Shown here in pieces: positions 7,702-58,570 of a stretch of 64,000 nucleotides of DNA. A program made the position numbers and the translations under genes. The notes beneath the pieces are model-generated. The model was not told the origin of the DNA. It saw nothing but the letters and a program-made list of their open reading frames with translations, and did no database searches. Source of the DNA: a virus. Lineage: Duplodnaviria > Caudoviricetes. Positions within the stretch are counted from its first letter, which is position 1. Every line of letters begins with the position of its first letter. Location of the stretch: the IMG/VR virus record IMGVR_UViG_3300010340_000454, positions 32,001 through 96,000 of that record; one strand, written 5' to 3'.

Positions 7702-7702
7702 T

Positions 7703-7978: not shown

Positions 7979-8629
7979 ATGTTTAAGATAACCAAAGAAC
8001 TATTTAAGGTTGCTGCACCTACATGTAAAACGCCTGACGTTTTTGTTGACTTGTTGAACGAACACTTACCTAAGTTCGGTATAGATACAAGATTAGAGGT
8101 AGTACACTTTTTGGCCCAGTACTCGCATGAGACTTCGGACTTTAACAAATTTATTGAGAATACAAACTACACATCTCCTGAAAGGCTAGTGGCCATCTTT
8201 GGTAAGTACTTCTACTTAAATACCAAAACTCCTCGTAAGTATGATGCTAGGCAGTATGCAGGGAAGCCCGAAGCTATTGCTAACATTGTTTACGCTAACC
8301 GAAACGGTAATGGAGGGCCTGAAACAGGCCATGGGTTTAAGTACAGAGGAAGAGGCGCTTGTCATTTAACCTTTCTAGATAACTATAAGGCATTTCAAAA
8401 AGACATGGGCAAACTCTTCCCAAAGTCAGTAGTTGAGGCTCCTGAACAAATAGAGCAACCTTTTGGTAGCGTGATGGCAGGAATTTGGTACTGGAACTAT
8501 AGGAAAATTAACATTGCAGCTACAAAGAACTCTGTCGAAGCGGTATCTCGTTTAGTAAATGGAGGTACTAACGGACTATCTGATAGAATAGCTAGAACAA
8601 ACAAGCTATTATCCTACACGAAAACCTGA
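7979..8629 (+). CDS. Endolysin, glycoside hydrolase family 19
   Basis: HFLAQYSHET..EN, IANIVYANRNGNG, YRGRG and NGGTNGLSDR motifs of phage GH19 lysins. Confidence 0.92.
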   Translation: MFKITKELFKVAAPTCKTPDVFVDLLNEHLPKFGIDTRLEVVHFLAQYSHETSDFNKFIENTNYTSPERLVAIFGKYFYLNTKTPRKYDARQYAGKPEAIANIVYANRNGNGGPETGHGFKYRGRGACHLTFLDNYKAFQKDMGKLFPKSVVEAPEQIEQPFGSVMAGIWYWNYRKINIAATKNSVEAVSRLVNGGTNGLSDRIARTNKLLSYTKT

Positions 8630-41400: not shown

Positions 41401-43344
41401 ATGTCAGAAGAAATGCTAGTTAGCCCTGAAGATCGTGTTTCCCCTAAAGGGAAAGAAGTTTTAGAGATTATCAGAACGCACTTATCTAATCCAACGCAGT
41501 ACCCAGGCAAGATTATAGTTTTTTGTAATACTTACGCCTCGGTTGAGGGTATTTTCCGACAGTTCCCTCCTGAAATTCAGGCTGTTACGGTTAAATACTC
41601 CGCAGAAACAAAGACGGAAGATGAAGCTGAATTTAAGACTAACCCTAAGAAACGTGTGATTATAGGCATTTCGCAGTCTATGGAGACAGGCTTGAACCTG
41701 CAGATTGCGGATACTTTGATTCGCGTGGATAATGTGTGGAGCCCAGGTCGCTTTGAACAAGGCCTTGCACGAGTGAACCGCCCTAATCTAAAAGACAAAG
41801 GCGGCGACCCTCGTATGAAGACGGGCATCCACATGTACTACATTATGGTCGACCGCACTATCGACGTCCTAAAGACAGCGCGACTGACCTCTAAGACTGT
41901 GCAAATTGCCAAATTCTATAACGCAGGCACTGAGGACTATGTCCACTATGAGAACATAGGGTTTAATGCGGACGGAACACCTTTAGAGCCTATACGGGTC
42001 TCCATGGAAAACTTGAGACATGGACTAACCTATAGCGAAGACCTAATGCCTTATATGGAAGCCTACGAGCAGTATAGAGAGGCCGAAGATACTGTGTTTG
42101 ACGAGTATCAGAAAGCTCACCCTGAGCTTGTTCCTGTTGAGGTAAAACACACGGGTCTGCTAAAAGGCTCTAAGCTGCTAACACGTATCCCGTACACTCC
42201 AGGCATGTCTATTTTTGCTGCTGACAAGCTGGGTCTTGTACCTTACCCAACCTATAAGCGCCAATTCATAGAAAAGTACGGGGAAGCTCGGTGGGACCCG
42301 TCTAACCTTCCAGTACACACGGAATATGGTGAAGGGAATATAGGCAATGCCCGAGTAAACCATATTAGCGTACATTTGACCTCCGGCGGTACTGCTAACT
42401 TACAACCTTCCGTTATTTTTGTTATTACTAAGAAAGTAACGTCTACGAAGGAAATCCGACAGACACTCGCTGATATTGTTGGACTAGAAGGCTTAGAAAT
42501 TCAGCTAGAAAACTTTAGAGTAGAGAAACGCAAAGCACGAAAAGAGGCAAGGGAGCAAAGGTTAGCACAACGCGAGCTTGAGAAGCAAATGCGCTTAGCC
42601 GAACGTCAAAAGCGTAAGGAAGAAAAGCTACAGCCTACTGAAGTAGTGCGTGAGGACAAGCGCCGTAAGAAAGACGCGGAAGAGGAAATGATCGCGCCTG
42701 CTGACATGGAGGAGAACAGCACTATTAGTCTCTACCTGACTCTTACTAACGACATGATTTCCTTAGCGACCTCCGCAGACGACCCTGACGCTAACTACAG
42801 GGAACTGAAACCTTACGGGTTCAACCTAGTACGCCCCTATTGGTATCTTGAGTTGAAACAGGCAGCCGCGCTAGACACCTTTATTGACAAGCTAGATCAA
42901 ATGTCGCAGAAAGGAACTATTGTTATCAATGATAAATACTTCTACATGTTGGAAGACATTTATAATGAGTTCAAACAAGGTAGAAGCAAGCTACTACAGG
43001 TGTCTCAACGAACCACTACAGAAATTGGTCACTTCCTTATAGACCGTCGCCGTAAGATTACAAATCCGCTAGAGATTCGCCCTGTTCCTATGATCGTAGA
43101 TGGTAGTCTATACATCTGTATGGATACGCTCATTCACAATCCCGCTATTGTTCAAAAGGTTAAGCGTATTCAGGTCCCTGGAGTTAAGTGGGAACTGCAA
43201 GATGATGCACTGATAGCCTTCTTCACTAGAAAGTCGGAAGTTATGAGCACAGTCAAGGAGCTTAAGGCAGACGGCTTCATTATTGAAAACGAAGCGGAGC
43301 TTAAGGAAGCATACAATCAACTTAAAGTAAGAGGCGTAAAATGA
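38479..43344 (+). CDS. Large SNF2/SWI2-family ATPase
   Basis: LLPHQ, AGGGKT, DESH, LTGT, ETGLNLQ and QGLARVNR helicase motifs. Confidence 0.9.
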   Translation: MQTLIARTPVTAADAGILRPTFGVDFSAFGTKGADVRKMPAAVPGTFLDLLTPAVSAKKRDRYSFTPKGLTQVFGRALARDLAGAILPDDKRSDLEITKFFDEEELRKLYTGVTPSLAKLVRVKREGNSWMLSLPILAINLSSLIRDCMKPYEGEPTSYVAAELNRIATYVLPTLRALGWRFDSAQVKFDIPKNRVGTSLHGDYLQANQFFTKYVRGFSVEGNHKAAFIRTRNGDAATTLAEVPIGEPETLGAFIRGAMETNYIVYANVFLPDEEAPYYFQQPSDDVKPGTVLDFFYRWYRYAFTTKIELPTFTHPISAPVKKNAAFTPRPRTNNIGLVLTNRNTLLYVPNDANELEAFEASYSELAEAEEGYYTISNKGAAGKSSNITHRLLYVDWVSNKIMFTGDTPNIQTIDLEATYKPSAASIVKRLLWTFSFDTINTIVAPIAARNKKVFGQEDSLKNFASAAEIDNLINTLVSINNVSGRAFARSVHADMTIEAYSLAALSFLFDINEGGNKRYNETITAEFTSYPVQLRDIVTNSANPLLIPIARWIKETHTKVMKDPLNYINSCGTSPAATMEHLGFLLLFNEAVKFKELKIEDYNERKVYFEQDELDEDYVPAFKNSDGVEKLLPHQAKVLNANRKIPKFSIIAVAAGGGKTIIAIEDIMRALEEGIVKKPLVICPSYLMKDYVAEVNYVSQGKTNVVVFDTSVFNAYSKTPDTFTTGQRDYSKLKALVDNAPINTIYVTGYDTYARSGNQSSVYGGELVYSNSHIEFMRSCNFDGVWMDESHFLKASGSNRAIATETLIAEIPYKRLLTGTIAPNSLVDLVRQVSYFSPDILGSESEFRVRFSEDGSDSGAFVARKGAEYEIFKELKNQVVFQNVQRKEWAALLPRMHEHFIPAYLTSNQKKVYDILIGDMVDKMSSDSEVKTFLKEEQSADVGDADDIEHVFENYEENLSAIESFLASPMSTPMSEEMLVSPEDRVSPKGKEVLEIIRTHLSNPTQYPGKIIVFCNTYASVEGIFRQFPPEIQAVTVKYSAETKTEDEAEFKTNPKKRVIIGISQSMETGLNLQIADTLIRVDNVWSPGRFEQGLARVNRPNLKDKGGDPRMKTGIHMYYIMVDRTIDVLKTARLTSKTVQIAKFYNAGTEDYVHYENIGFNADGTPLEPIRVSMENLRHGLTYSEDLMPYMEAYEQYREAEDTVFDEYQKAHPELVPVEVKHTGLLKGSKLLTRIPYTPGMSIFAADKLGLVPYPTYKRQFIEKYGEARWDPSNLPVHTEYGEGNIGNARVNHISVHLTSGGTANLQPSVIFVITKKVTSTKEIRQTLADIVGLEGLEIQLENFRVEKRKARKEAREQRLAQRELEKQMRLAERQKRKEEKLQPTEVVREDKRRKKDAEEEMIAPADMEENSTISLYLTLTNDMISLATSADDPDANYRELKPYGFNLVRPYWYLELKQAAALDTFIDKLDQMSQKGTIVINDKYFYMLEDIYNEFKQGRSKLLQVSQRTTTEIGHFLIDRRRKITNPLEIRPVPMIVDGSLYICMDTLIHNPAIVQKVKRIQVPGVKWELQDDALIAFFTRKSEVMSTVKELKADGFIIENEAELKEAYNQLKVRGVK

Positions 43345-43974: not shown

Positions 43975-46900
43975 ATGTTTGACTACGTTGAATACAGGGA
44001 CTTTGAAAACAGAGTCCCTAAGTACTGGAAGTCTGTTTCTTCTAAATGCACGCCGTTCAACCTAAAGATTCCTGTTGAGAAAAAGTGGAGCAAGGCGTCT
44101 CGCAGGGTTCTTATTGTGGTTGGACACGTCGCGTCTGAGGACCTGAGTGCAGAACAACTGCTATCAGGAAATTCTAAAAAGGTTCTGGTTAATTGTTTCG
44201 AGTACGCTAAGAGGCTAGCCCAGCCTTACGGATACGTAGAGGACAATTCCACAGCCTATGCAGCAATCAATTTCAATTTTTTCAAGAACTACCACCTATC
44301 AAATACAGATCGTACTAAGTCGGATTCAGATGCAGCTAATAGAGTACGCGCCTACATACGCGAGGTCGACCCTACGCACATTCTTTGTTTGGGGGAAGAG
44401 CCGAGTTCCTCGTTGTTCGGTGACGACATTAACTTGGTCTTGAATAAGAAAGGCTGGGTACACAAAATAAAAGTGGAAGGTCGCACTAGGACAGTAGTTA
44501 CAACAATAGACTATAGTGAAGCAGTAATTAACTCTAATAAATCTTCTTCTTTCGAGGATGATGGTGGAGATAACGGCGAAGGGGCGTTGAAGGCTGCGTA
44601 TACTCTAGGGTATCTATGCCGCAACATTCGCAACCTTCTGCTAGACCGAAATCCACATGACATTGGCCACATAAAAGTAAAGCCTTACCTAGTAGACACT
44701 ATAGAAAAGTTTGACGAAATGATGAAAGAGTTGAAAGCAGCTAAAAAGATTGCTTTTGATACGGAAACTGCCAACCTAAATAAAATAGCTAACAAGTTGT
44801 TGGTTATGCAGTTCTCCACCACCTCAAAGCGCGGCTATATTCTTCCATACCTCCACAAAGACACTCCGTTTAACAAAGGCGAGCTAGACTATATTAGGAA
44901 AAAACTGCGTAAATTCTTTATGCAGAAAAAAGAAATGAGCCTTGACGAATACCTTATAATGTACAACGGCAAATTTGACTTGACTGTTGTAAAGCAGGCC
45001 TTAGGAATACCTTTTATATATTGGCCTGTATACGATGCAATGGTTGGCGAACATACCCACGATGAAACCTTGCGGTTCATGGAAAATCAGTCTAGCACAC
45101 CGCACGGTAACATGGCACAAACTTGCTGTACTTATGGAAGCGCTTTCTATTTTGAAGCAGGTTTTTCCAAGAAAGATCGCGGTAATATGGAAGCAACCGA
45201 CCTGTATGATAGGGACTTCCAAAAATACTGCGCTGCGGATACCCAGCTACTGCTAGCGGTGCACGACGAACAAGTATCTAGGGCCAAGCACTTGATACAT
45301 AAAGAGAGCGGGGAATCGGTTTCTTTTAAGCAGGATTTCTTGCGCGTTGTTATCAATCAAATGTCTAACAATATACATGTGTTTGCTGCTATGGAACACC
45401 GCGGTGTCCACATGGATGCCAAGTACTTATCCTTTATGAAAACCCGAGAGTCTCCTATATCTAAATCTATTACTGACCACATCAGAAACTTCAACAAAAT
45501 TGAAGCTGTCCGAAAGGCCAACGATGCGCTTCTGGAAGATGAAGGCGAAGTACAGGAGGGAGGTCTGTTCAATATAACACCTTGGGTATTCGATATAGGT
45601 AAGCCTGCACATAAAGATAAATTATTCTTCGATATTCTAGGCCTCAAGGCACTCTCGTACGGTAAGAAAGGAACACCTAAACTAGATAAATCTTTCAAGA
45701 GCGCGTATGCTGACGTACCTGAAGTAGCTATGCTAAACGACTTGGAAAAATTAAAGAAATTGAAGTCTTCCTACGTGGATGCTTTTGCCCGACAGCTTAA
45801 TGAGCCTGACGGCAAAGTGGATATGAGACTGCGCCCTATGTACGGATTCTTTAAGGTTCTGTCAGGGCGCTCCAACTCAGAGAAGCCTTCTTTGCAACAG
45901 GTTCCTCAGCACTCTGCCAACGCCAAGTACATTAAGCGGATGTTTGCCCCTGAACAAGGCAAACTTATAGTTAAGATGGACTACTCCGCGCATGAAGTAA
46001 GAGGATGGTCTATTATTAGTCACGATAAACTTCTAGCCGAGCTTTTCGCTATCGGTAGACGCATTCGCCAATCGTATAGGGCTACAGGTAAAAAGAAATA
46101 TGCGCTTGAGCTTCAACTAAAGGGCGACGTTCACAAACTAAACGTGGAATTCTTCTTCGGTACGCCTATTGACAAGGTAACTAAGGAAGAACGTAACGCT
46201 ATTAAAGGTGTGGTGTTCGGCGCTATCTACGGTAAGTCCTATAAGACCTTGGCGAAAGACTTGAAAAAAGACGATAGTTTCACTAAGGATTTATACGACA
46301 GGTTCTTTGCTCGGTTCAAGAAAGCCGCAGCTTGGCTGGAATGGGCAAAAGCTTTCGGACAGAAGAACCTTTTTGTTAAGTCTGCTCTAGGTAGGCGTCG
46401 CCATCTTTTTGGTCATCTTATAGGAGATAAAGGCGTAAGCGCTGCTATGGATCGCCGCGCTATGAACTCACCTATTCAAGGTATGGGTGCAGATTTTGGT
46501 CACACTGGTTCGCGCATAACCGAAATGCACTTGTATGAGTACCTACAAAAAGTAGGCGAACTAGACGAAGATTCAACACATTGCCCTATAGGAACCGAGA
46601 TCATGGTGCATGACTCCATCTTCTCTAGCGCCCCACTAAAGCATATCTTGGCAACCGCCCAGATTATGCAATGGTGTACTACCCTGGGAGTGCAGGCATA
46701 TTACGATAAGTACTTCGACCTGAAGTTTACGGTGCCTGTAGAAATTGAAATGGAATTTGGCGCCTCTCAGGACGCTACCTACAAGTGGGACTGGTCTAAC
46801 TCTGGTTATGATCCACAGATCCACGAATGGAACGAAGACTCTTTAGCATATCACGGGTACAAACTGAAATCCTATGACAAAGAGAGTGGCGCCTACAGAG

Positions 46901-47136
46901 TAAAGAAAGATGGCGAAACTTTGGAAGGCAAGGCTATTAAAGACGGTTTCTTTTCTATAGAAGAAGCTATACGCTTGTCTCTGCAGGATCATGCTAAAAT
47001 TTATCCTGACCTTGACCCAGAAAAAGAGTTCAAACGTGTGTTTAAGGATTGGGAAATAAGCAAGACCAAAAAGTATCTGGACAAGCACTATCCAATCCTA
47101 GACAACTATAAGGAAGAGTATAAGGAGTGCGTCTAA
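43975..47136 (+). CDS. Family A DNA polymerase with 3'-5' exonuclease and N-terminal UDG-like domain
   Basis: Exonuclease motifs FDTET, YNGKFD and YCAAD; polymerase motifs DYSAHEVR, RNAIKGVVFGAIYG and VHDS; N-terminal VLIVVG..P.HILCLGE. Confidence 0.95.
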   Translation: MFDYVEYRDFENRVPKYWKSVSSKCTPFNLKIPVEKKWSKASRRVLIVVGHVASEDLSAEQLLSGNSKKVLVNCFEYAKRLAQPYGYVEDNSTAYAAINFNFFKNYHLSNTDRTKSDSDAANRVRAYIREVDPTHILCLGEEPSSSLFGDDINLVLNKKGWVHKIKVEGRTRTVVTTIDYSEAVINSNKSSSFEDDGGDNGEGALKAAYTLGYLCRNIRNLLLDRNPHDIGHIKVKPYLVDTIEKFDEMMKELKAAKKIAFDTETANLNKIANKLLVMQFSTTSKRGYILPYLHKDTPFNKGELDYIRKKLRKFFMQKKEMSLDEYLIMYNGKFDLTVVKQALGIPFIYWPVYDAMVGEHTHDETLRFMENQSSTPHGNMAQTCCTYGSAFYFEAGFSKKDRGNMEATDLYDRDFQKYCAADTQLLLAVHDEQVSRAKHLIHKESGESVSFKQDFLRVVINQMSNNIHVFAAMEHRGVHMDAKYLSFMKTRESPISKSITDHIRNFNKIEAVRKANDALLEDEGEVQEGGLFNITPWVFDIGKPAHKDKLFFDILGLKALSYGKKGTPKLDKSFKSAYADVPEVAMLNDLEKLKKLKSSYVDAFARQLNEPDGKVDMRLRPMYGFFKVLSGRSNSEKPSLQQVPQHSANAKYIKRMFAPEQGKLIVKMDYSAHEVRGWSIISHDKLLAELFAIGRRIRQSYRATGKKKYALELQLKGDVHKLNVEFFFGTPIDKVTKEERNAIKGVVFGAIYGKSYKTLAKDLKKDDSFTKDLYDRFFARFKKAAAWLEWAKAFGQKNLFVKSALGRRRHLFGHLIGDKGVSAAMDRRAMNSPIQGMGADFGHTGSRITEMHLYEYLQKVGELDEDSTHCPIGTEIMVHDSIFSSAPLKHILATAQIMQWCTTLGVQAYYDKYFDLKFTVPVEIEMEFGASQDATYKWDWSNSGYDPQIHEWNEDSLAYHGYKLKSYDKESGAYRVKKDGETLEGKAIKDGFFSIEEAIRLSLQDHAKIYPDLDPEKEFKRVFKDWEISKTKKYLDKHYPILDNYKEEYKECV

Positions 47137-47210: not shown

Positions 47211-47978
47211 ATGCAAAATGATTTTAAAATACCTATTATTCACGTAGACCCTCCTCAGTATAGGTGTCAGGATAAAAAAATCCTAGAAGAAGTCAGGTGC
47301 GCTCCAATCAACCCAAACGCTTTGCCTATTCTTCATATAACTCGAGGCTTTGAAGATGAAGGCTCCTTAATAGGGCAACCTCAGGCTCGTATCATAATAG
47401 GAGGATGTGCGGTAGGCCGTAAAGACTGCCAACCACAGAGTGATATAGGGGCCGCTGCGTCTAAAGTAATGAGCATTGCCGAAATTATAGTAGAGCTTTA
47501 TAAGATAGGCGCAGACAAAATTAAGACAGTAGTTATCTCTGAAGGCGATTCACCGCAGTACCGTACACAAACTGCTGCATTATCAAACGCCCTAAAAGAT
47601 AATGGGTGGAATACCCATCTGGAAACCTCAGGATTTCTTATAGACACCAAGTACTATAATTGGTTTAACTACATATCTATAGCAATTAAGACTACGTATT
47701 CCACAGCACCGTCCGACAACAAGCATATTAGAAAAATTATTGAATACTCTATGCTAACACCTCAACCCCACCAAATTAAGGCTAGGGTATCCTGCGTAGA
47801 GGACCTTCAGTGGATAGAGGAAAAGTTTAGACCTCTTCTATTGCAAAAAGAACGCCCACTAATCATTACTACACAAACAGAAGATACTACCGCTTTTGAC
47901 TTAGTACAAGATTGGATTAGACCGGAGTACAACGTAAGAGTTATTGCCTCACAACACGTTATATTAAAACAACGGTGA
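47211..47978 (+). CDS. Degenerate QueE-like radical SAM protein
   Basis: EDEG..IG.P..GGCAVGRKDC, VVISEG, HLETSG and SQH align with QueE, but the middle Cys is Arg. Confidence 0.7.
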   Translation: MQNDFKIPIIHVDPPQYRCQDKKILEEVRCAPINPNALPILHITRGFEDEGSLIGQPQARIIIGGCAVGRKDCQPQSDIGAAASKVMSIAEIIVELYKIGADKIKTVVISEGDSPQYRTQTAALSNALKDNGWNTHLETSGFLIDTKYYNWFNYISIAIKTTYSTAPSDNKHIRKIIEYSMLTPQPHQIKARVSCVEDLQWIEEKFRPLLLQKERPLIITTQTEDTTAFDLVQDWIRPEYNVRVIASQHVILKQR

Positions 47979-47981
47979 CTT

Positions 47982-48791
47982 ATGTTTGGAGTATTGGTGC
48001 TTTATAATTCAACAAAAAATAGTAACAACCTAACTGAAATATGTAAGGGTTTGTGCAAAGACCAAAAGGTAACATACGCTACCGCGAATGACCTACATAT
48101 AGAGGTGGACCCTGATACATTAAACCTACAGACAGGGGATTTTTTCCTGTCGAGTTCAGATCAAGCCTGTAGCGTACCCATCCCTTCGAAAGGAAGCGCT
48201 GCCGTATCTTGGTTCAACGGGTTCGTTACTCAGCCTAGTAAGGAAGAGCTAGACGCATTTACCGGAATCAGTGACGATACCTGTAGTAGCGACGGGTACT
48301 ATCCAGCAAAACTTTTGGTTAAGTTAAACAGCTACAAGCACCCGCATAGTCAAGATTTAGAAATGAATTATACTAAGTTAGTACATTCTAGAGTGACGTG
48401 CCTAATTGAGGGAATGTTTTCTTTTTGTTTAGCCTATCTGACCAAGAGTAGTAGGTCTAGGGTAGTGCTAGCTGCGAAAGATAAAGACCTATATATTACT
48501 CTGGCGTATTCCACAGACTTCTACGCTTTGGTTTGGTCCGATGACGTAAGCACAAGCAGCAGATTTAGAGACGCTGACTGCTACATTTATGGGCTAACGC
48601 CACTATCAAATAACGGAACTCTAGTATTACATCCAAAGTTTTTAACTTCAAAGTGGAGAAAGTGGAGGTCCCCTTCTCAGGAAGGAAATAAAGCCCCGAA
48701 CGCTTTGAGGGCTGTATCCATATTGGAGTCCTACCTAAAAAGAAATACGGTAGACTTCTGTGCGGATAAGTACGATTGTACAATTATTTAG
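47982..48791 (+). CDS. Degenerate class II glutamine amidotransferase-like protein
   Basis: MFGV (cf. MCGI), FNG (cf. HNG), IEGMFSF, VLAAKDKDLY. Confidence 0.5.
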   Translation: MFGVLVLYNSTKNSNNLTEICKGLCKDQKVTYATANDLHIEVDPDTLNLQTGDFFLSSSDQACSVPIPSKGSAAVSWFNGFVTQPSKEELDAFTGISDDTCSSDGYYPAKLLVKLNSYKHPHSQDLEMNYTKLVHSRVTCLIEGMFSFCLAYLTKSSRSRVVLAAKDKDLYITLAYSTDFYALVWSDDVSTSSRFRDADCYIYGLTPLSNNGTLVLHPKFLTSKWRKWRSPSQEGNKAPNALRAVSILESYLKRNTVDFCADKYDCTII

Positions 48792-48814
48792 TAAACTCCA
48801 AGGAGTAAGTCAAA

Positions 48815-49900
48815 ATGAAAGTAAAAGTAACTACAGAAAGTTTTATTAACGCCTTAAAGGACGTGCAAAAAGTAGCGCCTTCGGAAACAATAAATATAAC
48901 GGCGTCTAGCAAAGCGTTAACCCTGTCCTCATCCTCAACAGGTGCCTCTATTTGTGTTATTGTATCCGGGGCTAAAGTGGAGTCTAAAGGCTACTGCGCG
49001 GTGCCTGTCGCTACTTTAGAAGGTGTCCTTAAGAAGCGTAAAGACGTAGTATTCGAGTTGCATAAGGATGAGCTTCAATTCAAAGCAGGCTCTGCTACTA
49101 GCTACGCAGGTAAGCTAACGACAGTTCCTTACCAAGAAATTAAAATAGAAAAAGAAGAATCCATATTAAAGCTAGACGAAGAAACTTTGTCCAAGCTTTC
49201 TGAAATTATTTCCAACGTAGCCTTAAATTCAGTCAACTTAAAGAAGCAGGATATCCTACCTATCTGTGTTCGCCTGTCGGATGAAGGTATTGAAGCCTCG
49301 TGCGCGTCACGCAATCACATGGCTTACGCACATTTCCATAAGAAAACATTTAAGAAGACTAACGAATTTTGTGTAGAACCCTCAATCCTGCCTCTTATTG
49401 AATCGGTAAGCCGCAAATCCGCCTACAAGTTAGCGGTGACCGACAATTCTGTTTTCGCGGAAAGCGACACCTTTCAGATTAGATTCGTAACCCAACAGTT
49501 AGACCGCTTTGTAAAATTACAAACAGTAAAAGACTTCCTTAAGAATCGCCCTAAGGCCGAGGCAACCATTAAAGCTAAATCCGAGGACGTAGTAGCAAGC
49601 TTTCAGAATATGTTGTCTCTATACGAGCAGAATAGTTTTATTGAGGTCACTTGCAAAGATAACACACTGAAAGTAGCTACTAAAACCAAGTTTGGAGCCG
49701 CCTCAGAAAATCTTAAAGGGGAAGCAAAAGGCGGCTTTAAAAAGCCTTACGGAGTGCATCCTAAAGTATTTGATGATCTGCTAGTAAAGTGTAAGGCAAA
49801 CACGATAAAAATAGGATTTCACGATGGGACCTCTATCTCTATAGACCAGTCCAAATCAGACGTAGATTACTCCTACTCCTGTTCTACCACAAAACTATAA
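48815..49900 (+). CDS. DNA sliding clamp (DNA polymerase III beta-like)
   Basis: 361 aa with a three-domain alpha/beta pattern of beta clamps, in the replication cluster. Confidence 0.75.
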   Translation: MKVKVTTESFINALKDVQKVAPSETINITASSKALTLSSSSTGASICVIVSGAKVESKGYCAVPVATLEGVLKKRKDVVFELHKDELQFKAGSATSYAGKLTTVPYQEIKIEKEESILKLDEETLSKLSEIISNVALNSVNLKKQDILPICVRLSDEGIEASCASRNHMAYAHFHKKTFKKTNEFCVEPSILPLIESVSRKSAYKLAVTDNSVFAESDTFQIRFVTQQLDRFVKLQTVKDFLKNRPKAEATIKAKSEDVVASFQNMLSLYEQNSFIEVTCKDNTLKVATKTKFGAASENLKGEAKGGFKKPYGVHPKVFDDLLVKCKANTIKIGFHDGTSISIDQSKSDVDYSYSCSTTKL

Positions 49901-50340
49901 TGAAGCTACATAATAAGGTGTTTTCCCTACCTGAGCTATACATTACTGAAACCTTCCAACGCATGTTAATAGATAAAAAACAATGCGTGTTATATACCAA
50001 AAAAGATTTATCTATGCACGCTAGTCTAGTACTAAACTATATGGAACATATCACAATACCTTTTCTTAGCGTTTATGAAATAAATGCTGAATGCGTCGAC
50101 GGCATAACGGTAGGCTACCTATTCGAGGTTCACTCGAAAAAAATATCACATAGCTACAATTTTTTTGCAGTTACAAGCCTAAAAAAGTCCGAGCTTAGCC
50201 TGACTGAAATGAAGAAAGCGAAGATAGCTTTAGACCTTAGATTTAAAATAAAAGGGTTAAAGCTTTATGCCTTGGATGCCACAGGAGTATTAGTTACGTG
50301 TGGCTTTAATGAAGACTTAAAGGAAATTTTGGAGTTCTAA
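49900..50340 (+). CDS. Hypothetical protein
   Basis: Coupled to the clamp gene by a TAATG overlap. Confidence 0.6.
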   Translation: MKLHNKVFSLPELYITETFQRMLIDKKQCVLYTKKDLSMHASLVLNYMEHITIPFLSVYEINAECVDGITVGYLFEVHSKKISHSYNFFAVTSLKKSELSLTEMKKAKIALDLRFKIKGLKLYALDATGVLVTCGFNEDLKEILEF

Positions 50341-51030
50341 ATGTCTGCAAAAAATGTAGCGAAGAAAGCAGCTTCTAAGGCTAAGCCTGCAAAGATAGGG
50401 CTCTCCGAGCTGGAGAGTGCCTACAAGGTCATTGTAGATTATTTACAATCGAATACGTCCGAGTATGACAACAAAAACAATCTGAATGGAACTCCTAACC
50501 TAGCAGCTAAGTCTCTTATGGAAAGGGCCAAAAGTGATTTAGAAATTTCTAAGGAGCTTCGGCAATCCCTACAAAACCTTCAGTACATCGCCAGAGACAC
50601 AGGCGAGGCAGACGTTGTGGTTCATGGGCCTATTGAGCTACATAGTATATGTCCTAGTCACTTGATGCCTACTTCATACGAAGCTTACGTATCGTATGTG
50701 CCGAATCCGCAGGACGGTTACGTTGTTGCCACACCTAGCCTATATCAGGCGGTCGCGGCCCTAGGCAGACGCGCCGTTATACATGCCAAGCTTGCCTCAG
50801 ATATTGTAGACGTTCTATGTAAGCCAGCTAAACCCAATTTCCCTTCTATAGAAACTGCTGGTGCTGCTGCACTATTGTTAAGCACATCACCGTGTGTTGC
50901 ATGTAATAAGGAAATGTCTGAGGTGACTTCACTAACTTATGTGTTTAGAGGCGTATTTAAAAATAAAGATATGGAAGCCAAGTTCTATCAGGCTATCAAT
51001 AACATCCAAACATCGAGGCCGAAGCGTTGA
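50341..51030 (+). CDS. Degenerate GTP cyclohydrolase I (FolE)-like protein
   Basis: GTP, IELHSICPSHLMP, YVSYVP, GRR, SPC and FRGVF align with FolE, but substrate residues are altered. Confidence 0.8.
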   Translation: MSAKNVAKKAASKAKPAKIGLSELESAYKVIVDYLQSNTSEYDNKNNLNGTPNLAAKSLMERAKSDLEISKELRQSLQNLQYIARDTGEADVVVHGPIELHSICPSHLMPTSYEAYVSYVPNPQDGYVVATPSLYQAVAALGRRAVIHAKLASDIVDVLCKPAKPNFPSIETAGAAALLLSTSPCVACNKEMSEVTSLTYVFRGVFKNKDMEAKFYQAINNIQTSRPKR

Positions 51031-51302
51031 AAAAATCGACTGCCCAAGACCTGTTACCTTTGATTGAAAAAATTCAACACCTATTAAACAAAGACGCCTT
51101 TAAGGAAATTGAATCTCTGCTACTAGAAAAAACAGAAAACATAGGAAGCCTAACCTTAGAGGAAATACTTACTTACCTGCGTTGTACTTTTTCCAAACGT
51201 CACTACTACTCAGAAGCTTGGGAGATTTTTAAGGAAGCAGCCATTGACGAAGTGCAACAGTCTAATATAAACCCAAGCGATATATTTATAGGTTTACTGT
51301 AA
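51027..51302 (+). CDS. Hypothetical protein
   Basis: TTG start overlapping the upstream stop; GAGG RBS. Confidence 0.55.
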   Translation: MKKSTAQDLLPLIEKIQHLLNKDAFKEIESLLLEKTENIGSLTLEEILTYLRCTFSKRHYYSEAWEIFKEAAIDEVQQSNINPSDIFIGLL

Positions 51303-51305
51303 AGT
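51295..51305 (+). promoter_or_regulatory. Putative motif B (TACTGTAAAGT)
   Basis: Exact 11-mer overlapping a stop codon, starting 29 nt before ATG 51324. Confidence 0.55.
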
Positions 51306-51323
51306 GAGCTAGAGGTAATAATT

Positions 51324-51857
51324 ATGGGAATGTCGCAAGTAAAGCGGGTCTTGAAGAAAGACCCAGCCTTCCTCAAGTTTAAGGAAGTTGCGGAGTATTG
51401 CAAAACCGTAGCAGAGTTCGACAACCTAGTTAAAGAAATGGAAAACATGCACCAGGCTAGGAAGTCTAGAGCGCTGTATCTAGGAAAGCCTAAGCTAAAA
51501 ACACTTATGGATGCCTCTCTGCAAGGTACCGCATTCCGCTCGCGCTGCGTGGAAATTATGATTAACGTAATGAAGGCACAACGCACAATGGAGGCCGCTA
51601 TCGACCGTATAGAAGCCCACATAATGGCAAGCTACAAGGACGAACTCGGCGTAAAGTCTCAGGCAGATAGAAAAACCGTTATCAAGGCGCTGCTACAGAA
51701 AGAGTATTACAGGTTAGCAGACTACAACCGAATAATTGAAATGGCGCAGGCCTTGATACATGACCTAGACCAATGGATGTGGACGGCGAAACATACTCTA
51801 GACGCATTAAATATCCTGTACACAAGGGAAAGCATATTAGGACAAAAGAAATTGTGA
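51324..51857 (+). CDS. Helical hypothetical protein (possibly UvsY-like)
   Basis: All-helical 177 aa near the UvsW-like helicase. Confidence 0.45.
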   Translation: MGMSQVKRVLKKDPAFLKFKEVAEYCKTVAEFDNLVKEMENMHQARKSRALYLGKPKLKTLMDASLQGTAFRSRCVEIMINVMKAQRTMEAAIDRIEAHIMASYKDELGVKSQADRKTVIKALLQKEYYRLADYNRIIEMAQALIHDLDQWMWTAKHTLDALNILYTRESILGQKKL

Positions 51858-52157: not shown

Positions 52158-53744
52158 ATGCTAAAAGCTTACATAAAAGACAGAATTTATCTGCCTATTA
52201 AAGCAGTAGACCTAGACAAACTTAGAGACCAGTACGTAGTTAAGCAATACCAAGAAGACAGGTGTGCAAAATGCCCCTTCCTACAGGACCGACACTCCGA
52301 TACTTGCGATGACTGCCCTGCCTACTTAGGTGAGTTCCAGCTTTTTAATGAAAAGCAGCACAACGGAAAGGGATATGTAGGTCTCTCTATTGGTCAAACC
52401 AAGAAGTTTAAAAAAGTTCTTAAAGTAGATAAAGACGAAATACGGTTCAAAGACTCTAGAACGGCTACAAAGTTTAAGCATAAGATTAAGTTTACAGGCA
52501 CTTTATACGATTACCAGAAGCCCGCGATCAAGCGCATGGTCGAGAAAGGCTACGGCGTCTTACAAGCACCGCCTCGCAGCGGTAAAACCGTTATGTTTAC
52601 CGACATAATGTGCGAGCTTGGTGTAAAGACGCTAATCATTGCGAACCAATACGACTATCTAGAACAATTCTATGAAACCATGTGTGGGTCGGACACACAG
52701 AAGCCTCTAACCAACATCCCAGATATTGAGGCAGATACTAGACGGAAAATTTGCGGTATCTGCAATTCAGTTGAAGACTTTGAAAAGTATGACGTTTGTT
52801 TAGCAACGTACCAGCAGTTTATTAACGATAAGAAAGGCAAGAAGCGCCTTAAGCAAATCAAAAAATTGTTCGGCCTAGTTCTAATAGACGAATGCGACCT
52901 AACACCGGCTGAAGCCTACTCTCGCGTTATAAATCAGTTCCAATCCAAATATAGAATGGGTTGCACAGGTACAACAGACCGCAAAGACGGCCGCTACTTC
53001 CTAGTAGACCACTTGCTTGGTCCTACGATGTATACAGTAGAAGTCGAGACCTTGACGCCTCGCGTGGAGTTCATAGAAACAGGAACCGTTATTTCGCATG
53101 ATTACAAGGTGCTTGCATACGCCTATCGCGCACTCGCTAATGATACAAAGAGGCATGATTTAATCTTAGACTGGATTGAACACGATATTAAGAATGGACG
53201 TTCTATCGTTATTCCTGTAGCAACCGTAGATCAGTGTAAACGAATAGTTGCAGACATTAACTCAAGATTCGGAAAAGAGATTGCCTGTGCATTCACACAA
53301 GCTACCGCTAAGAAAAAAGAAAACCGCAAAAACATTATCCTTAAAGCCAGAAAAGGCAAGTACAAGCTAATTGTTGGCATACGTAAAATGGTGCAACGCG
53401 GCATCAATGTACCTGCTTGGGATACACTGTACGAGATAACTCCTATCAGCAACTCACCAAATTTCCGTCAGGAAACCTCGCGTATTCTAACGCCGCTTGA
53501 AGGTAAGCCTCAGCCTATAATACGCTTCTTCCTAGACGACTTCGGGCTTTCTCGCGGCTGCCTACGAACTTGCCTGTATAATGATGGCATCTTAGCTATG
53601 AAGTTTAAAGTAAGCAAAGAAAACTGGGATAGGGCCCGTCGTTATACTCCACCTAAGGGTAGGGTCGTAGACATTGCCAAGATGACTCCAGATGGCGCAG
53701 TAAAGATAAAGAAGAGAACCAAACAAAAAATTGGGAAACTATAA
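52158..53744 (+). CDS. SF2 DNA helicase (UvsW-like)
   Basis: LYDYQ, PPRSGKT, DECD, TGT..RKDG, RGINVP and Q..SRILT motifs; N-terminal CxxC..CxxC. Confidence 0.9.
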   Translation: MLKAYIKDRIYLPIKAVDLDKLRDQYVVKQYQEDRCAKCPFLQDRHSDTCDDCPAYLGEFQLFNEKQHNGKGYVGLSIGQTKKFKKVLKVDKDEIRFKDSRTATKFKHKIKFTGTLYDYQKPAIKRMVEKGYGVLQAPPRSGKTVMFTDIMCELGVKTLIIANQYDYLEQFYETMCGSDTQKPLTNIPDIEADTRRKICGICNSVEDFEKYDVCLATYQQFINDKKGKKRLKQIKKLFGLVLIDECDLTPAEAYSRVINQFQSKYRMGCTGTTDRKDGRYFLVDHLLGPTMYTVEVETLTPRVEFIETGTVISHDYKVLAYAYRALANDTKRHDLILDWIEHDIKNGRSIVIPVATVDQCKRIVADINSRFGKEIACAFTQATAKKKENRKNIILKARKGKYKLIVGIRKMVQRGINVPAWDTLYEITPISNSPNFRQETSRILTPLEGKPQPIIRFFLDDFGLSRGCLRTCLYNDGILAMKFKVSKENWDRARRYTPPKGRVVDIAKMTPDGAVKIKKRTKQKIGKL

Positions 53745-53745
53745 A

Positions 53746-54408
53746 ATGGCACGCGATAGTCTAAAAATATGTTTAGATAAGCGTAATACAATAGCTACTA
53801 AGCAAATGGTAACCAGAGGACTTCCTAAGTCTATTCTATCGTACCCTTCTTTCCGCCTTGAGGACAAAGCTGCCTCTTTCGTTTCTAAGGTAGAAGGTCT
53901 CCGAGAGAAGCGTATTGAGAAAGGTAAGCAAGTAGACAGCATAAAGAAAATGATAGAAGACCCTTTCTTAGGGCCTTATGTCGCCTGCATTAGTGGTTCT
54001 CCACATGATGTTAACGCTAAACTGCTAGGCGCGTACATAATGATGCAAGCTGTAATAATGCAGATGAATAAGGAAGAACTTCCTAAAAAACAGCAGAAGA
54101 GGCTTAAAGATAAAAGTTTTCCTATCTGGCACAACCTGTATGGCGGGTTCGACAATCCGTTAGTGACTAAAGACAACAACTCTATCCATAAGCCTAGCCT
54201 GATTATTATTTCTAACGTAACAATTGATAGTACAGGCCCTAAGATAGAAAAGCTTCGTGACATTCTGGAAGCTTATTCCTCAGTACCTAGAATTGTGATT
54301 GCATCTGGCACTGACCCTTTAACGCTGTTTCATTCCAGACTATATAGCAACCTGAATTTTTGCTGCCACTTAGGCTCATCTTTGACCAAGAAATCCCACG
54401 TGTTGTAA
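53746..54408 (+). CDS. Hypothetical protein (possibly a degenerate helicase-loader fold)
   Basis: Precedes DnaB; alpha/beta pattern without an intact Walker A; ATG 53746 preferred. Confidence 0.45.
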   Translation: MARDSLKICLDKRNTIATKQMVTRGLPKSILSYPSFRLEDKAASFVSKVEGLREKRIEKGKQVDSIKKMIEDPFLGPYVACISGSPHDVNAKLLGAYIMMQAVIMQMNKEELPKKQQKRLKDKSFPIWHNLYGGFDNPLVTKDNNSIHKPSLIIISNVTIDSTGPKIEKLRDILEAYSSVPRIVIASGTDPLTLFHSRLYSNLNFCCHLGSSLTKKSHVL

Positions 54409-54421: not shown

Positions 54422-55765
54422 GTGAAATTGCATAACGCGGACCTTGAGCTATCAGTTCTCTACTCCATCTGTGAGAGCGATTCTAAGGTAAAGGCTAAAC
54501 TTCTTGCTAACACAGGCCCTAAGTATTTCTTTAATGACCACACCAATGAAGCTGTCAAACGCATTATGGCTTTGGTTAAGGTATCCGATGAAATACCTTC
54601 ATTCTCCGAACTGACTAGCGATCCAGTACTATCTGAAACGACTAGAAAAAAGCTGAAGAAGTACAAAGGAGAACCTATCACTGAGAAAAAATTCCGTAGA
54701 CGCTTAGGCCAGCTTCAGCAGTATTATCAAGTTAGGGAACTGTACTTCCTAAGCGAAGGCCTAAACAAGGCGTTACAACAGGAAAAAGTAGACGTACCTG
54801 ATCTTCTAGAACAAACTGCGGATAAGCTAACCAATGCCCGAGTTCGCAGGGACCTGAAGCAAGAGATACACCACATCGGCAAGTCTAATAACTCTGCGGA
54901 TATTGTTAAGCGCCTCTTATCCAAAGAGAAGCCTAACTTGGTTCCGACAGGGTTTTCTCCATTTGATAACGTTAATGGCGGAATCGCGTATGGTGGTCTG
55001 TTTGGCTTAGGTGGTCCTGCTGGTGGTGGTAAGACGTCCTTAGCAATTCAGTTAGCTATGAACATGAGTGAGCTAGGGCGCGAGGACGTAGCTTATGTAC
55101 CACTAGAAATGGATGAAGATGAAACCATGGAACGCATCCTGGCTAACAAGTCAGGAGTTAAGTTGAACCGAATTAAACAACGTATTACCACAGAAAAAGA
55201 AGACAAGATTATTAAACGCGCCTATAAAAAGCACGTTAAAGGTTTGAAGGAAGATAAGACACGTTTCACCATATTCTCCCCATCCGAGGATATGACTATT
55301 GAGGAAATACTTCTAACGCTAAAGCCGTACGGGCACCGGGTAATTATCATTGACTACCTTACACTTTTGAAAGGCGTAGACAGCGACGCAGGCGGGGAAA
55401 AGCAATGGCAGAAGTTGTCTCAAGTAGGCCGCTATTGCAAGATTTGGGCAAAAGCAAATAAGACTGTAGTAATTCTCCTAGCGCAGGTTAATGACGAAGG
55501 TGCTTTACGCTATTCTCAGGCCTTGAAAGAACACGCCAATAATCTATGGGTGTGGCCTGCTAATAAGGAAACGCGAGAGAACAAAGTTATGCGTATCTCT
55601 CAGATTAAAGCACGTAACCAGTCCTTGTTTGATTTTGAGCTTGGTTATGATGATGAGTTGTTCCAAGTATTCGACGTTAATAAAGCACCGGATTCCAAAG
55701 AAGAAGAGGAAACTTCAGGCAAGCCTGCGGAAGATGAGTACCTTGCTAGCGTAGACGAGGACTGA
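54422..55765 (+). CDS. dnaB: Replicative DnaB-like helicase
   Basis: PTGF..FD...GG, GPAGGGKT, LEM, IIIDYL, LAQ and KARN motifs. Confidence 0.92.
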   Translation: MKLHNADLELSVLYSICESDSKVKAKLLANTGPKYFFNDHTNEAVKRIMALVKVSDEIPSFSELTSDPVLSETTRKKLKKYKGEPITEKKFRRRLGQLQQYYQVRELYFLSEGLNKALQQEKVDVPDLLEQTADKLTNARVRRDLKQEIHHIGKSNNSADIVKRLLSKEKPNLVPTGFSPFDNVNGGIAYGGLFGLGGPAGGGKTSLAIQLAMNMSELGREDVAYVPLEMDEDETMERILANKSGVKLNRIKQRITTEKEDKIIKRAYKKHVKGLKEDKTRFTIFSPSEDMTIEEILLTLKPYGHRVIIIDYLTLLKGVDSDAGGEKQWQKLSQVGRYCKIWAKANKTVVILLAQVNDEGALRYSQALKEHANNLWVWPANKETRENKVMRISQIKARNQSLFDFELGYDDELFQVFDVNKAPDSKEEEETSGKPAEDEYLASVDED

Positions 55766-55766: not shown

Positions 55767-56366
55767 ATGGAAAACCCTTTCGGTAATTTAGCTCCTATTA
55801 TACCTGCTATTATAGACATAGACCCTGAAAACTTCGACACCAAAGTGTTCGCTACTAACAAAAAGAAGAAGACTAAGGAAATTTATGACCCCGCTAAGCC
55901 GAAATCCCGGTTTTTCTCTGACAAGAGAGGCTCTCGCTTTTTAGAGATTAAGGCCCGCAGAAAAACCTTACGAGAACTTAGGCAGGAGTGGGAAGCCACT
56001 ATTCGTCCTAAGGATGAAATTATTGAGGAAAAGGTAGAAGTCAAAGTATCTAAAAAAGAAAAAGCAGACTTTTTGGAGGCTCTTCATAAGAACACTGACA
56101 GCCTACACCAATTCTTTCTAAAAGAAATTCTGCCTGTATACACCGCTATTGACCCTGCATTACGCCAAACCGTAGAGTCGGCTTCACACATCGTAGGAGA
56201 TGATGCGGATTTATACCTTAGCGACGACCTACTAAATATGATTGACGACGCTATTAACCTTAAAGTATTCCATTTCATTTGTGATAAGCTCTTTGTGGAC
56301 GAAAAAACCAAGAAGCTAATACAGTCCCGGTACTTTACTCCTGTTGAACGGAAGCCTAAAAAATGA
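55767..56366 (+). CDS. Hypothetical protein (terminase small subunit candidate by position)
   Basis: Overlaps the start of the large terminase. Confidence 0.45.
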   Translation: MENPFGNLAPIIPAIIDIDPENFDTKVFATNKKKKTKEIYDPAKPKSRFFSDKRGSRFLEIKARRKTLRELRQEWEATIRPKDEIIEEKVEVKVSKKEKADFLEALHKNTDSLHQFFLKEILPVYTAIDPALRQTVESASHIVGDDADLYLSDDLLNMIDDAINLKVFHFICDKLFVDEKTKKLIQSRYFTPVERKPKK

Positions 56367-58570
56367 ATGCTAACTGCCTAAACTGTAGCAAGTTTATTCA
56401 GTGCAGCTATCCTAATAAACGTGGGTCCTATAAATGCGATAAGTGGTCCGAGGTCAAGCTTAGAGACGGCCTGCTAATTAGCTTTGATGCAGATGAAGAA
56501 AAACTCTCCTTGCCTAGCCTATCAAAAGCAGACCTACACTTCGACGAAAACAAGCTAGATACTGCCTTCGATAACATGGAGGCTTACTTGGATGAGGCTC
56601 TTAACAACAAACTTCCTGTTCCTAAAGATTTTAAGTTTGACGATCGAGACTTGCCTCTAGCCAAGAACATGCACGACTTTATCACTAACCCTGTGTATGG
56701 TTTCAGAGAGTCTACACTATTTTCTAGGCAATTGTGGATGGCTACTAAGCTGTTTGGTGAATGGTGTTATGACTGTACCAAAAATAGACATAAGAATTCT
56801 AGCCAGACTAACAAAGTAAAGAACCCGATGAAGGATGTCAGGAACATAAAAATCAGGGCAACTATGGAAGACTTTGCTGATAAGGTACAACTGCTAGAGC
56901 ATGGAGTGTGCCCTAAATGCGGAACGAATAAGCTAAAACTGTATAAGGAAAAGAAATTAAAATTCTACACTGAGTTAGCTGTATGCGCAGGGCAGCGTTC
57001 CGGTAAGTCTATTGTTACGTCGTTCCTGTTTGCCTACCACACTCATCGCCTGCTAAAGTTGCAAAAGCCTGCACAGCTATTAACAGGTGCCTCTAACACA
57101 TTGCTCACCATTTCTATGGTCTCTATTGATAAAGGCGGCGTTATGCGAAATCTTTGGATGCCTTTCTACGCCGCTTTAGAGGATAGTAAATGGTTCCAAG
57201 AATACCACAGTATGCTGTCACACTATGGTAAGAAGTACGGTGAGGAAGGATTCAAACAGATGGATACCTTTCTCCACTACAAACATAGAAGGCTCTACAT
57301 TCACCCTACAGTACCTAACCAACGTGGCCTTCGCGGTGCTACTCGAATAGGATCCGCAATCGACGAACTTGGTTGGTTTGACGCAAACTCTCCTGATAAG
57401 ATTACCCTGTCGGCAGACGGTATTTACGAATCGCTTAACCGCTCTATGCTTACAACTAGAACGAGCGCTAGAAAACTATTCAAGTCCGGTTACTTCGATA
57501 TACCTACAGGATTTTCTTTCAACATTTCCAGCCCGTCTTCTACCGACGACAAAATAATGCAGCTAGTTACTAAGCACAGCCACAGTAAGACGGTTCTAGC
57601 CGTACATGCGCCTACGTGGGAACTAAATCCTAACGTACCTCGCAAAGACCCTGAAATTCAAAAGGCCTACAGCGAAGACCCTATTGCGGCTGACCGAGAT
57701 TATGGAGCTAATCCTCCTTCTCGTAATGGATCGCCTTTCATATCAAGTCCTGCTTTGATTGAAGACGCCTTTACTAACAAGAAAAATACAGTGGAATACA
57801 GATATGAAACCAAGAAATCAGAGAAAGAAGACGGAAAAATCTATAAGGCAGCACAAGCAACGATTCACGCCCCTAGTGTCGTTAACGGCTCTGTCCTTGC
57901 TATTGACGCTGCTTATTCTGATAACTCTTTCGCTATTAGCGTAGGTCACCTAGAGGAAAAGAAAATTGTATTTGATGCCTTAGTGGAAATTATTCCAGAT
58001 AAAGGCAGAAATGTGTTGAACCACGCCCGAATTGTCAAGAATATAATCGAACCTATGATTCGTGCCTACAACGTGAAGTACGTGGTAGCTGACCGTTGGA
58101 ACTCTCTGTATTTGCTCCACAAATTTATGGAAGACTTTCCTCAACTAGTGTCTGCGGAACAATACTCAGTTAAGTACCAAGACTTTGTAGAGTTCCGCTC
58201 CTACGTAGAACACCAAGGCATCGTTTTTCCTAAGCTGGAATCAGACGATAAACATTTCTATATAAATGGCATAGGTAAGGAAGGGCAGTTCTATCCTAAC
58301 CTGTTCGATTATAAACCTGTGTGCCATTTGTTCCATCAAATGCTAACTGTTCAAGATGGAAAGAAGACCGTTGAGAAGGCACATAAGAAAACGGATGACC
58401 TATTCCGATCTGTTGTATTAGCTAGCGCCTACCTATTAGATGCAGACGTAGTACCTAACCTAGCCGATAAGAAAGTTAACTATAATAGAGGCGTTGCGGC
58501 GCTAGCTTCTGGAGGCGCGTCTACTAATGTGGTAGTTAATGGTAGAGGAAAAGGTATTGCTGCTATGTAG
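56363..58570 (+). CDS. terL: Terminase large subunit
   Basis: Walker A GQRSGKS, Walker B IDELG, ISSP, PTWELNP; nuclease motifs AIDAA..D, DRWNS and DDL. Confidence 0.92.
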   Translation: MNANCLNCSKFIQCSYPNKRGSYKCDKWSEVKLRDGLLISFDADEEKLSLPSLSKADLHFDENKLDTAFDNMEAYLDEALNNKLPVPKDFKFDDRDLPLAKNMHDFITNPVYGFRESTLFSRQLWMATKLFGEWCYDCTKNRHKNSSQTNKVKNPMKDVRNIKIRATMEDFADKVQLLEHGVCPKCGTNKLKLYKEKKLKFYTELAVCAGQRSGKSIVTSFLFAYHTHRLLKLQKPAQLLTGASNTLLTISMVSIDKGGVMRNLWMPFYAALEDSKWFQEYHSMLSHYGKKYGEEGFKQMDTFLHYKHRRLYIHPTVPNQRGLRGATRIGSAIDELGWFDANSPDKITLSADGIYESLNRSMLTTRTSARKLFKSGYFDIPTGFSFNISSPSSTDDKIMQLVTKHSHSKTVLAVHAPTWELNPNVPRKDPEIQKAYSEDPIAADRDYGANPPSRNGSPFISSPALIEDAFTNKKNTVEYRYETKKSEKEDGKIYKAAQATIHAPSVVNGSVLAIDAAYSDNSFAISVGHLEEKKIVFDALVEIIPDKGRNVLNHARIVKNIIEPMIRAYNVKYVVADRWNSLYLLHKFMEDFPQLVSAEQYSVKYQDFVEFRSYVEHQGIVFPKLESDDKHFYINGIGKEGQFYPNLFDYKPVCHLFHQMLTVQDGKKTVEKAHKKTDDLFRSVVLASAYLLDADVVPNLADKKVNYNRGVAALASGGASTNVVVNGRGKGIAAM

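Follow-up and report, generated by a model that had tools for sequence, protein, structure and literature searches.

The window analysed here comprises 64,000 nucleotides (nt), bases 32001-96000 of the 114,429-bp uncultured virus record IMGVR_UViG_3300010340_000454, which has a CheckV completeness of ~45%. Between the genes for a DNA polymerase and helicases, at positions 47211-51030, it carries two open reading frames (ORFs) homologous to enzymes of 7-deazaguanine synthesis, one QueE-like and one FolE-like, which are devoid of catalytic residues. These are best explained as recently inactivated relics of an abandoned pathway, i.e., ordinary gene decay caught early, a reading to which we assign a probability of about 0.6. 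The phage dG+/dPreQ0 pathway consists of FolE, QueD, QueE, QueC or Gat-QueC, and DpdA, as in Enterobacteria phage 9g, and Gat-QueC marks the dG+ producers (Hutinet et al. 2019, PMC6884629). Compared with this type of pathway, the two ORFs of the window are homologous to two of the enzymes, but their catalytic residues are gone. A preliminary description had placed the two, together with a class II glutamine amidotransferase (GATase)-like ORF (here ORF2), between the polymerase and the helicases, flanking the beta-clamp, and its coordinates hold. It had also described all three ORFs as full length, free of stops and lacking catalytic residues, which alignment to relatives and structures confirmed.

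The QueE-like ORF (47211-47978, + strand) encodes 255 amino acids. Its homology to QueE is clear from the match to QueE of B. subtilis (5TGS, E=1.2e-6), and its scores against the curated models fall below every cut-off: 38.5 bits against 300 for TIGR04349 (E=1e-9), 36.9 against 206 for TIGR03365, 19.7 against 200 for TIGR04322 and 17.9 against 29.5 for PF04055, with a weak match to phrog_2076 (E=1.5e-4). When the protein is aligned to 5TGS and its nearest relatives, the cluster motif CX3CX2C reads C66-AVG-R70-KD-C73, where the relatives P0046 and P0047 have C-AVA-C-xG-C and a further relative, L002, has CX8CX2C. The TGGEP segment, which binds S-adenosylmethionine (SAM), has become SEGDS through T110S, G111E, E113D and P114S, so that the GGE motif reads E111-G112-D113, and the conserved Arg ahead of the GGC motif is I62 (R62I). 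An intact cysteine triad, GGE and the Arg and Asp-Thr flanking the cluster loop are thus all missing. Further changes relative to P0046 and P0047 are D74Q, G49D and an in-frame deletion of eight residues. These two relatives (63% and 55% identical, respectively) keep CX3CX2C, TGGEP and all positions common to L002 and the QueE of Xanthomonas phage PhiXhv-15. A radical-SAM enzyme requires all three cluster cysteines and the SAM-binding motif; since neither is intact here, the QueE-like protein cannot be a working QueE and is probably the relic of a 7-carboxy-7-deazaguanine synthase homologue with a destroyed active site. A GGGAG ribosome-binding site lies 8 nt 5' of its start. The identical protein is present on four contigs (from NCBI, JGI, ENA and Logan), and two further contigs carry a variant differing by one residue.

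The FolE-like ORF (50341-51030, + strand, 229 amino acids) passes the Pfam model PF01227 with 46.5 bits at a cut-off of 27 but remains far under the NCBIfam FolE cut-offs (35-52 bits against 162-202), and it is therefore classed as a homologue rather than an equivalog. Its zinc ligands are kept: in alignments with solved FolE chains and the clade relatives, C104, H107 and C185 fall at the CxxH and HxC motifs. The corresponding ligands in E. coli FolE are C110, H113 and C181, and its catalytic pair is H112 and H179. In the FolE-like protein, the catalytic histidines are replaced (H106S, H183S), as are the triphosphate-binding Ser-Lys and Arg (S132P, K133S, R189N; additionally R136Q) and the Glu that recognises guanine (E149A). 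All of these lost catalytic and GTP positions are invariant in P0002, P0003, L002 and PhiXhv-15, in comparison with which the protein reads CPSHL for CPHHL, VATPS for LGLSK, HAK for QE(K/Q), STSPC for G(I/V)HxC and CNK for CRG. The sister P0002, 51-52% identical to the FolE-like protein, keeps CPHH, LSK, QE, HxC and CRG. Overall, 24 of 73 clade-invariant positions are altered in the FolE-like protein, against 2 of 51 in P0002. The ORF is thus probably the relic of a GTP cyclohydrolase I homologue that has retained its zinc ligands and lost its catalytic and GTP-binding residues. It has a GGAG ribosome-binding site 5' of its ATG, which abuts the stop of the preceding gene (ORF4), and the protein is present on four contigs.

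The relatives were compared at the protein level by tests of relative rate and of the replacement spectrum and by simulating stop codons under neutrality, with the sliding clamp, whose relatives range from 87% down to 56% identity, as the within-genome rate control. For QueE, three-taxon branch lengths are 30.9% for the window against 6.0% and 14.2% for the sisters, whereas those of the clamp are 8.85% against 3.85% and 11.95%; once the longer window branch is allowed for, the QueE-like protein has therefore changed at ~2.5 times the rate that its active sisters would predict. For FolE, Tajima-type counts of unique changes in the window and in P0002 are 41:12, 42:9, 35:12 and 24:2, depending on the outgroup, with p = 8e-5 to 1e-5 (1e-3 for 35:12; 1e-5 for 24:2, which covers sites fixed in three outgroups). 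The window copies of both genes thus evolve ~2.5-5 times faster than their sisters, and the rate of ORF2 is symmetric between the branches (e.g., 31:30).

The kind of replacement has changed as well. The mean BLOSUM62 score of window-specific changes is -0.03 for the QueE-like protein (n=70) and -0.12 for the FolE-like protein (n=41), as against conservative values of +0.96 for the clamp and +1.27 for ORF2 of the same genome and +0.70 for 209 pooled changes of functional lineages (Mann-Whitney p ~5e-4 for each protein against the pool; 4e-4 for the QueE-like one). Random single-nucleotide change would give -0.51 and -0.42, respectively, and a mixture of constrained changes with a fully neutral excess predicts -0.07 and -0.10, very near the observed values. 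The changes are spread along both proteins with no significant clustering (chi-square p ~0.29). Taken together, the rate, the spectrum and the spread bear the signature of relaxed constraint on both protein sequences. The preliminary description had named relaxed selection as the simpler alternative to its own proposal, and it is this alternative that lineage-specific damage, acceleration and near-random replacements favour for the QueE-like and FolE-like genes.

The history of the two genes can be followed in related phages. The large terminase subunit TerL of the window is 33-38% identical to that of jumbo phages of 207-264 kb, namely Pseudomonas PaBG, Vibrio GR7B, Xanthomonas PhiXhv-12/15/16 and Erwinia Y3, and the phage is a PaBG/PhiXhv-like jumbo phage. 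PhiXhv-15 (PV764602.1; a cultured Xanthomonas phage of 228.7 kb) has the same gene order as the window block: SNF2, a small ORF, PolA, QueE, dihydrofolate reductase, clamp, a 133-residue ORF, FolE, a small ORF, superfamily 2 (SF2) helicase, an exonuclease-like gene, DnaB and TerL, the dihydrofolate reductase occupying the slot that ORF2 holds in the window. Its QueE (phrog_2076, E=8e-41) and FolE (PF01227, 96.8 bits; 37% identical to the FolE-like protein) keep all motifs, whereas the window copies are degenerate. Elsewhere, PhiXhv-15 encodes QueD and a 507-residue fusion of GATase_7 with QueC, i.e., a Gat-QueC. Four IMG/VR phages (G001-G004; PolA 31% identical) likewise have FolE next to an intact QueE and encode QueC and QueD as well. 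PhiXhv-15 and these four phages therefore differ from the window in having FolE, QueE, QueD and either QueC or Gat-QueC, and the phage 9g/PhiXhv-type dG+ gene set is the closest intact model for the locus.

A third state is seen in L015, a 216-kb genome (84% complete; also designated G005) whose PolA is 50-58%, DnaB 57% and helicase 57% identical to those of the window. Its order is PolA, ORF2 homologue, a 134-residue ORF, clamp, ORF4 homologue and a homologue of the conserved phage protein phrog_17451; neither QueE nor FolE is present at the block positions, and neither FolE nor QueD was found genome-wide at this completeness. The phrog_17451 protein of the window is 52% identical to its counterpart in L015 (10759-11295), whose gene comes immediately after the ORF4 homologue, without an intervening FolE. 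The degenerate state itself is confined to one 90%-identity cluster, and scans of viral, metagenome and genome contigs and of GenBank phages returned no DNA of a closer relative. By parsimony, queE and folE within the replication block are ancestral to the clade and dispensable, and at least two losses have occurred, one through deletion in L015 and one through inactivation in the window lineage.

A few annotations in these relatives deserve comment. The Gat-QueC of PhiXhv-15 (PV764602.1 107369-108892; L020:7370-8893, - strand) is annotated as 'L-glutamine-D-fructose-6-phosphate aminotransferase', and it adjoins a glycosyltransferase, a de-N-acetylase-like gene and a 545-residue protein with an acetyltransferase domain; in a search for DpdA nearby, the neighbouring hypothetical proteins had no Pfam or PHROG match. 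The 'GTP 3',8-cyclase' (MoaA-like) of the same phage (PV764602.1 220018-220917; L014:20019-20918) is a QueE-type radical-SAM protein, and the first two cluster cysteines of the PhiXhv-15 QueE are separated by a long insertion. In G005, a 288-residue ORF weakly matches the QueC model, at the N-terminus only (L018, G005:C1:109627-109797; 23.9 bits, model positions 2-58) and is probably another PP-loop ATPase, not QueC.

The remainder of the pathway was sought in the entire 114,429-bp record, ~45% complete as it is. PF01702 (TGT), PF06508 (QueC) and PF01242 (QueD) gave no match at E<=1, and tblastn searches with QueC, QueD and Gat-QueC of the relatives detected no remnants. The absence of recognisable QueC and QueD that had been noted for the window thus extends to the whole record, as does that of a TGT-type DpdA. 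The wider search for dpdA, queC, queD and active paralogues, which the preliminary description had suggested, also yielded neither a second FolE, nor a second radical-SAM copy, nor any active paralogue. DpdA was not detected in the relatives by PF01702 either, a model that divergent DpdA3 and DpdA4 types may escape (PMC10516641). Judging from the genes present, the locus does not appear to be a working Dpd-type 7-deazaguanine system.

ORF2 (47982-48791, + strand, 269 amino acids) lies between the QueE-like gene and the clamp and matches neither Pfam, including its GATase families, nor PHROG. The preliminary description had assigned it to the class II GATase fold, an assignment now borne out by its predicted structure: an AlphaFold model built from 39 homologues (predicted local distance difference test, pLDDT, 92; predicted template modelling score, pTM, 0.89), which replaced a single-sequence model of pLDDT 35, superimposes on PurF with Z 14.9, on the GlmS glutaminase with Z 13.8 and on AsnB with Z 13.3 over 170-206 residues. 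Class II GATase domains make up the 13 best structural matches (Z 9.4-14.9), and the next, unrelated fold drops to Z 4.4. A Foldseek match to a class II GATase has E=1e-7, and the family profile weakly matches the glutaminase domain of GFAT1 (E=0.0017). ORF2 is thus predicted to be a stand-alone protein of the class II GATase (N-terminal nucleophile, Ntn) fold with its four-layer alpha-beta-beta-alpha architecture. It is alike in fold to PurF, GlmS/GFAT and AsnB but lacks Cys1 and a synthase domain, standing alone at ~250 amino acids.

An exhaustive profile-free search yielded 41 cluster representatives of the ORF2 family, of ~220-300 amino acids, in jumbo phages; among viral proteins, those most like it are uncharacterised and come from Ralstonia phage phiRSL1 and Achromobacter phage Motura. 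The N-terminus of ORF2 reads M-F-G, with no Cys nucleophile, and an N-terminal Cys is found in none of the 39 aligned members, neither at nor beside the N-terminus in a conserved column; only G80, N116 and W185 are near-invariant. The lack of this Cys is therefore ancient and shared by the whole family, rather than one element of a recent concerted loss, so that the proposed concerted loss of active sites behind open frames stands for the QueE-like and FolE-like genes and falls for ORF2. The proposal of a three-gene module of repurposed pseudo-enzymes fails with it, as ORF2 belongs to a separate family and persists in L015, which has no QueE, FolE or QueD. In that genome, its orthologue (42% identical) directly follows PolA, starting 8 nt after it. 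ORF2 was also considered as the detached Gat half of a Gat-QueC and rejected, because a profile comparison with the Gat domain of PhiXhv-15 revealed no similarity (probability 0.1%). ORF2 is hence a separate conserved jumbo-phage family and not a degenerate pathway gene, persisting where QueE and FolE are absent.

ORF4 (49900-50340, + strand), a small conserved protein of ~146 amino acids, directly follows the clamp, its start overlapping the clamp stop. It has no Pfam, PHROG or NCBIfam match, is 33% identical to the post-clamp ORF of L015 (10315-10758) and weakly matches (E=0.002) a 133-residue ORF in the same slot of PhiXhv-15. A hidden QueD was rejected here, as PF01242 finds nothing, and Atlas leads (YxiG-like, <=0.83) were no better than chance. 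Its constant position after the clamp in the window and L015, and weakly in PhiXhv-15, makes ORF4 a candidate clamp-associated factor. Neither ORF2 nor ORF4 belongs to the deazaguanine pathway; both are conserved accessory genes of the replication module.

If the QueE-like and FolE-like genes are relics, the ancestors of the phage would have made a 7-deazaguanine base (preQ0 or G+) by means of folE and queE inside the replication module and would have modified their DNA with it. The pathway would then have been given up in the window lineage, the catalytic and substrate-binding residues disappearing and the sequences drifting near the mutational pattern, until two proteins remained that may now be functionless. 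That their frames are still open could mean that the inactivation is young and occurred in roughly the final quarter of the branch leading away from the nearest sister, and/or that expression of the closely spaced genes downstream depends on ribosomes translating through them. Such read-through, a translational coupling that would keep the frames open, is proposed because the ATG of ORF2 lies 3 nt past the QueE-like stop and has a weak Shine-Dalgarno sequence, i.e., a poor ribosome-binding site of its own. The near-random replacement spectrum fits translation through the two genes better than a residual role of their proteins.

Several observations weigh against this reading. Both ORFs are uninterrupted and keep good Shine-Dalgarno sequences, and in a neutral, substitution-only simulation on the window codons, the chance of remaining stop-free is ~0.037 for the QueE-like gene (47 excess changes) and ~0.16 for the FolE-like gene (32 excess changes), or jointly ~0.006 (~0.05 with conservative counts). 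Frameshifting indels would lower this chance further, and the sole clear indel of the QueE-like gene is in frame; thus, something keeps the frames open. The QueE-like replacements are milder than pure random mutation (P=0.003), and all three zinc ligands of the FolE-like protein survive, which would occur by chance in ~30% of cases. Moreover, the part of the genome absent from the record could encode QueC, QueD or DpdA. Finally, the sister lineage with an intact QueE is defined by P0046 and the clamp P0051 (87% identical), which are apparently on the same 7,928-nt contig, a co-location inferred solely from the equal size of the contigs of two single-contig clusters. As open frames are unlikely under strict neutrality, a residual role, or selection for translation alone, has to be reckoned with.

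Such a residual role could mean that both proteins lost catalysis and were kept for a non-catalytic job, which we hold to be possible, if somewhat improbable; candidate jobs, no likelier themselves, are pterin or deazapurine binding, zinc binding, disturbance of host FolE/QueE oligomers or a structural function in the vicinity of the replisome. Frames that have stayed open through ~80 excess amino-acid changes would be in keeping with exaptation, as would the in-frame deletion of the QueE-like gene, the preserved ribosome-binding sites, the zinc ligands of the FolE-like protein, the survival of 67% of its clade-invariant positions and long C-terminal stretches of the QueE-like protein that are nearly identical to those of active sisters. 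The pathway even offers a precedent in DpdL, a QueD homologue whose catalytic Cys is replaced and for which a new role has been proposed (Cui, Hutinet et al. 2023, PMC10516641). Like the QueE-like and FolE-like proteins, DpdL is a phage homologue of a deazaguanine-pathway enzyme lacking a key catalytic residue; however, it is common to many phages and travels with DpdA3, whereas the degenerate forms described here belong to a single phage species and bear signs of relaxed selection. No description of a dead FolE or QueE in jumbo phages was found in the literature. Conservation across divergent phages is likewise missing for a state confined to one 90%-identity cluster, and the changes, near random and far more radical than those of the clamp and ORF2 in the same genome, extend over whole proteins and not just the active sites. 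The related phage L015 lives without both genes, and no partner or binding motif was identified; nothing tested lends support to the poisoning of host oligomers or to the replisome scaffolding that the preliminary description had envisaged. A freshly exapted pseudoenzyme pair, selected for binding a ligand or zinc or for interfering with host enzymes of queuosine or folate synthesis, and accompanied, separately, by an ORF2 family and ORF4 that are undescribed replisome accessory factors always travelling with PolA and the clamp, is an unlikely combination.

It is very improbable that the two proteins are still enzymes whose altered chemistry acts on a substrate resembling a pterin or deazapurine and which, with ORF2, contribute to an as yet undescribed modification of DNA or nucleotides. 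Tailoring enzymes such as DpdL, DpdM and DpdN did arise from pathway enzymes (PMC10516641), the genes form a single block of common orientation in which terminator-like signals do not exceed chance, and the zinc ligands C104, H107 and C185 of the FolE-like protein and two cysteines of the QueE-like protein are kept. Nevertheless, a 4Fe-4S cluster could not be held with the middle Cys changed to Arg and GGE gone, and the FolE-like protein has lost the Glu for guanine recognition, the Ser-Lys and Arg for triphosphate binding and the catalytic His pair. The new residues are common to no other sequence found, the replacement pattern looks random, and ORF2 is independent of the QueE-like and FolE-like genes. 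An assembly or sequencing artefact, or mis-called frames mimicking degenerate enzymes, was considered since the record is an uncultured metagenomic contig; with both proteins recurring on the independent contigs noted above, and with substitutions that are many, scattered and free of frame changes, this explanation has next to no probability left.

The locus would thus catch the loss of a DNA-base-modification pathway part-way. One clade holds active genes (PhiXhv-15, G001-G004 and the nearest sisters), dead but open genes (the window phage) and a clean deletion (L015), a series that helps to gauge the rate of turnover of anti-restriction DNA modifications among jumbo phages. It also bears on annotation, since a homology-based label such as 'GTP cyclohydrolase' or 'QueE' would lead one to expect, wrongly, that the window phage has modified DNA. 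If decay is the true explanation, the finding itself is ordinary. The ORF2 family, of GATase fold and never with Cys1, with relatives in phiRSL1 and Motura and a place beside polymerase and clamp, is a reasonable experimental target.

The genes of the region are all on the + strand and tightly packed. Upstream, a very large SNF2 helicase of 1,621 amino acids (38479-43344), which also occurs in PhiXhv-15 (27% identical) and L015 (37%), precedes PolA (43975-47136), a family A DNA polymerase with a 3'-5' exonuclease domain (PF00476 E=7e-49, PF01612 E=8.5e-10, phrog_17) that forms the upstream anchor of the block and shares 37% identity with the polymerase of PhiXhv-15 and 50-58% with its L015 counterpart. 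The beta-type sliding clamp, a DNA polymerase processivity factor (phrog_947, E=4.6e-13), occupies 48815-49900, and the phrog_17451 protein (51324-51857, E=1.9e-25) is the downstream anchor, followed by the SF2 helicase (52158-53744), an exonuclease-like protein (53731-54408), DnaB (54422-55765) and TerL (56363-58570), all + strand. PolA, clamp, SF2 helicase and DnaB, as identified from their sequences, confirm the replication setting. A promoter and terminator scan of the block gave nothing above shuffled expectation, and no internal terminator stands out. In L015, PolA is split into two ORFs (3458-4999 and 6062-7993, within L015:3458-7993) by an insert of ~1.1 kb that encodes, in antisense, a 387-residue protein of family DUF7487 (E=2.7e-40); the insert may be a mobile element or an insertion of the intron type. 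Downstream of the FolE-like gene in the window, a 91-residue ORF (51027-51302) begins with TTG, overlapping the stop of the FolE-like gene (TTGA). Neither L015 nor PhiXhv-15 has a homologue, and the ORF may be spurious or a small gene particular to this lineage. It is itself overlapped by an antisense ORF of 138 amino acids at 51206-51622.

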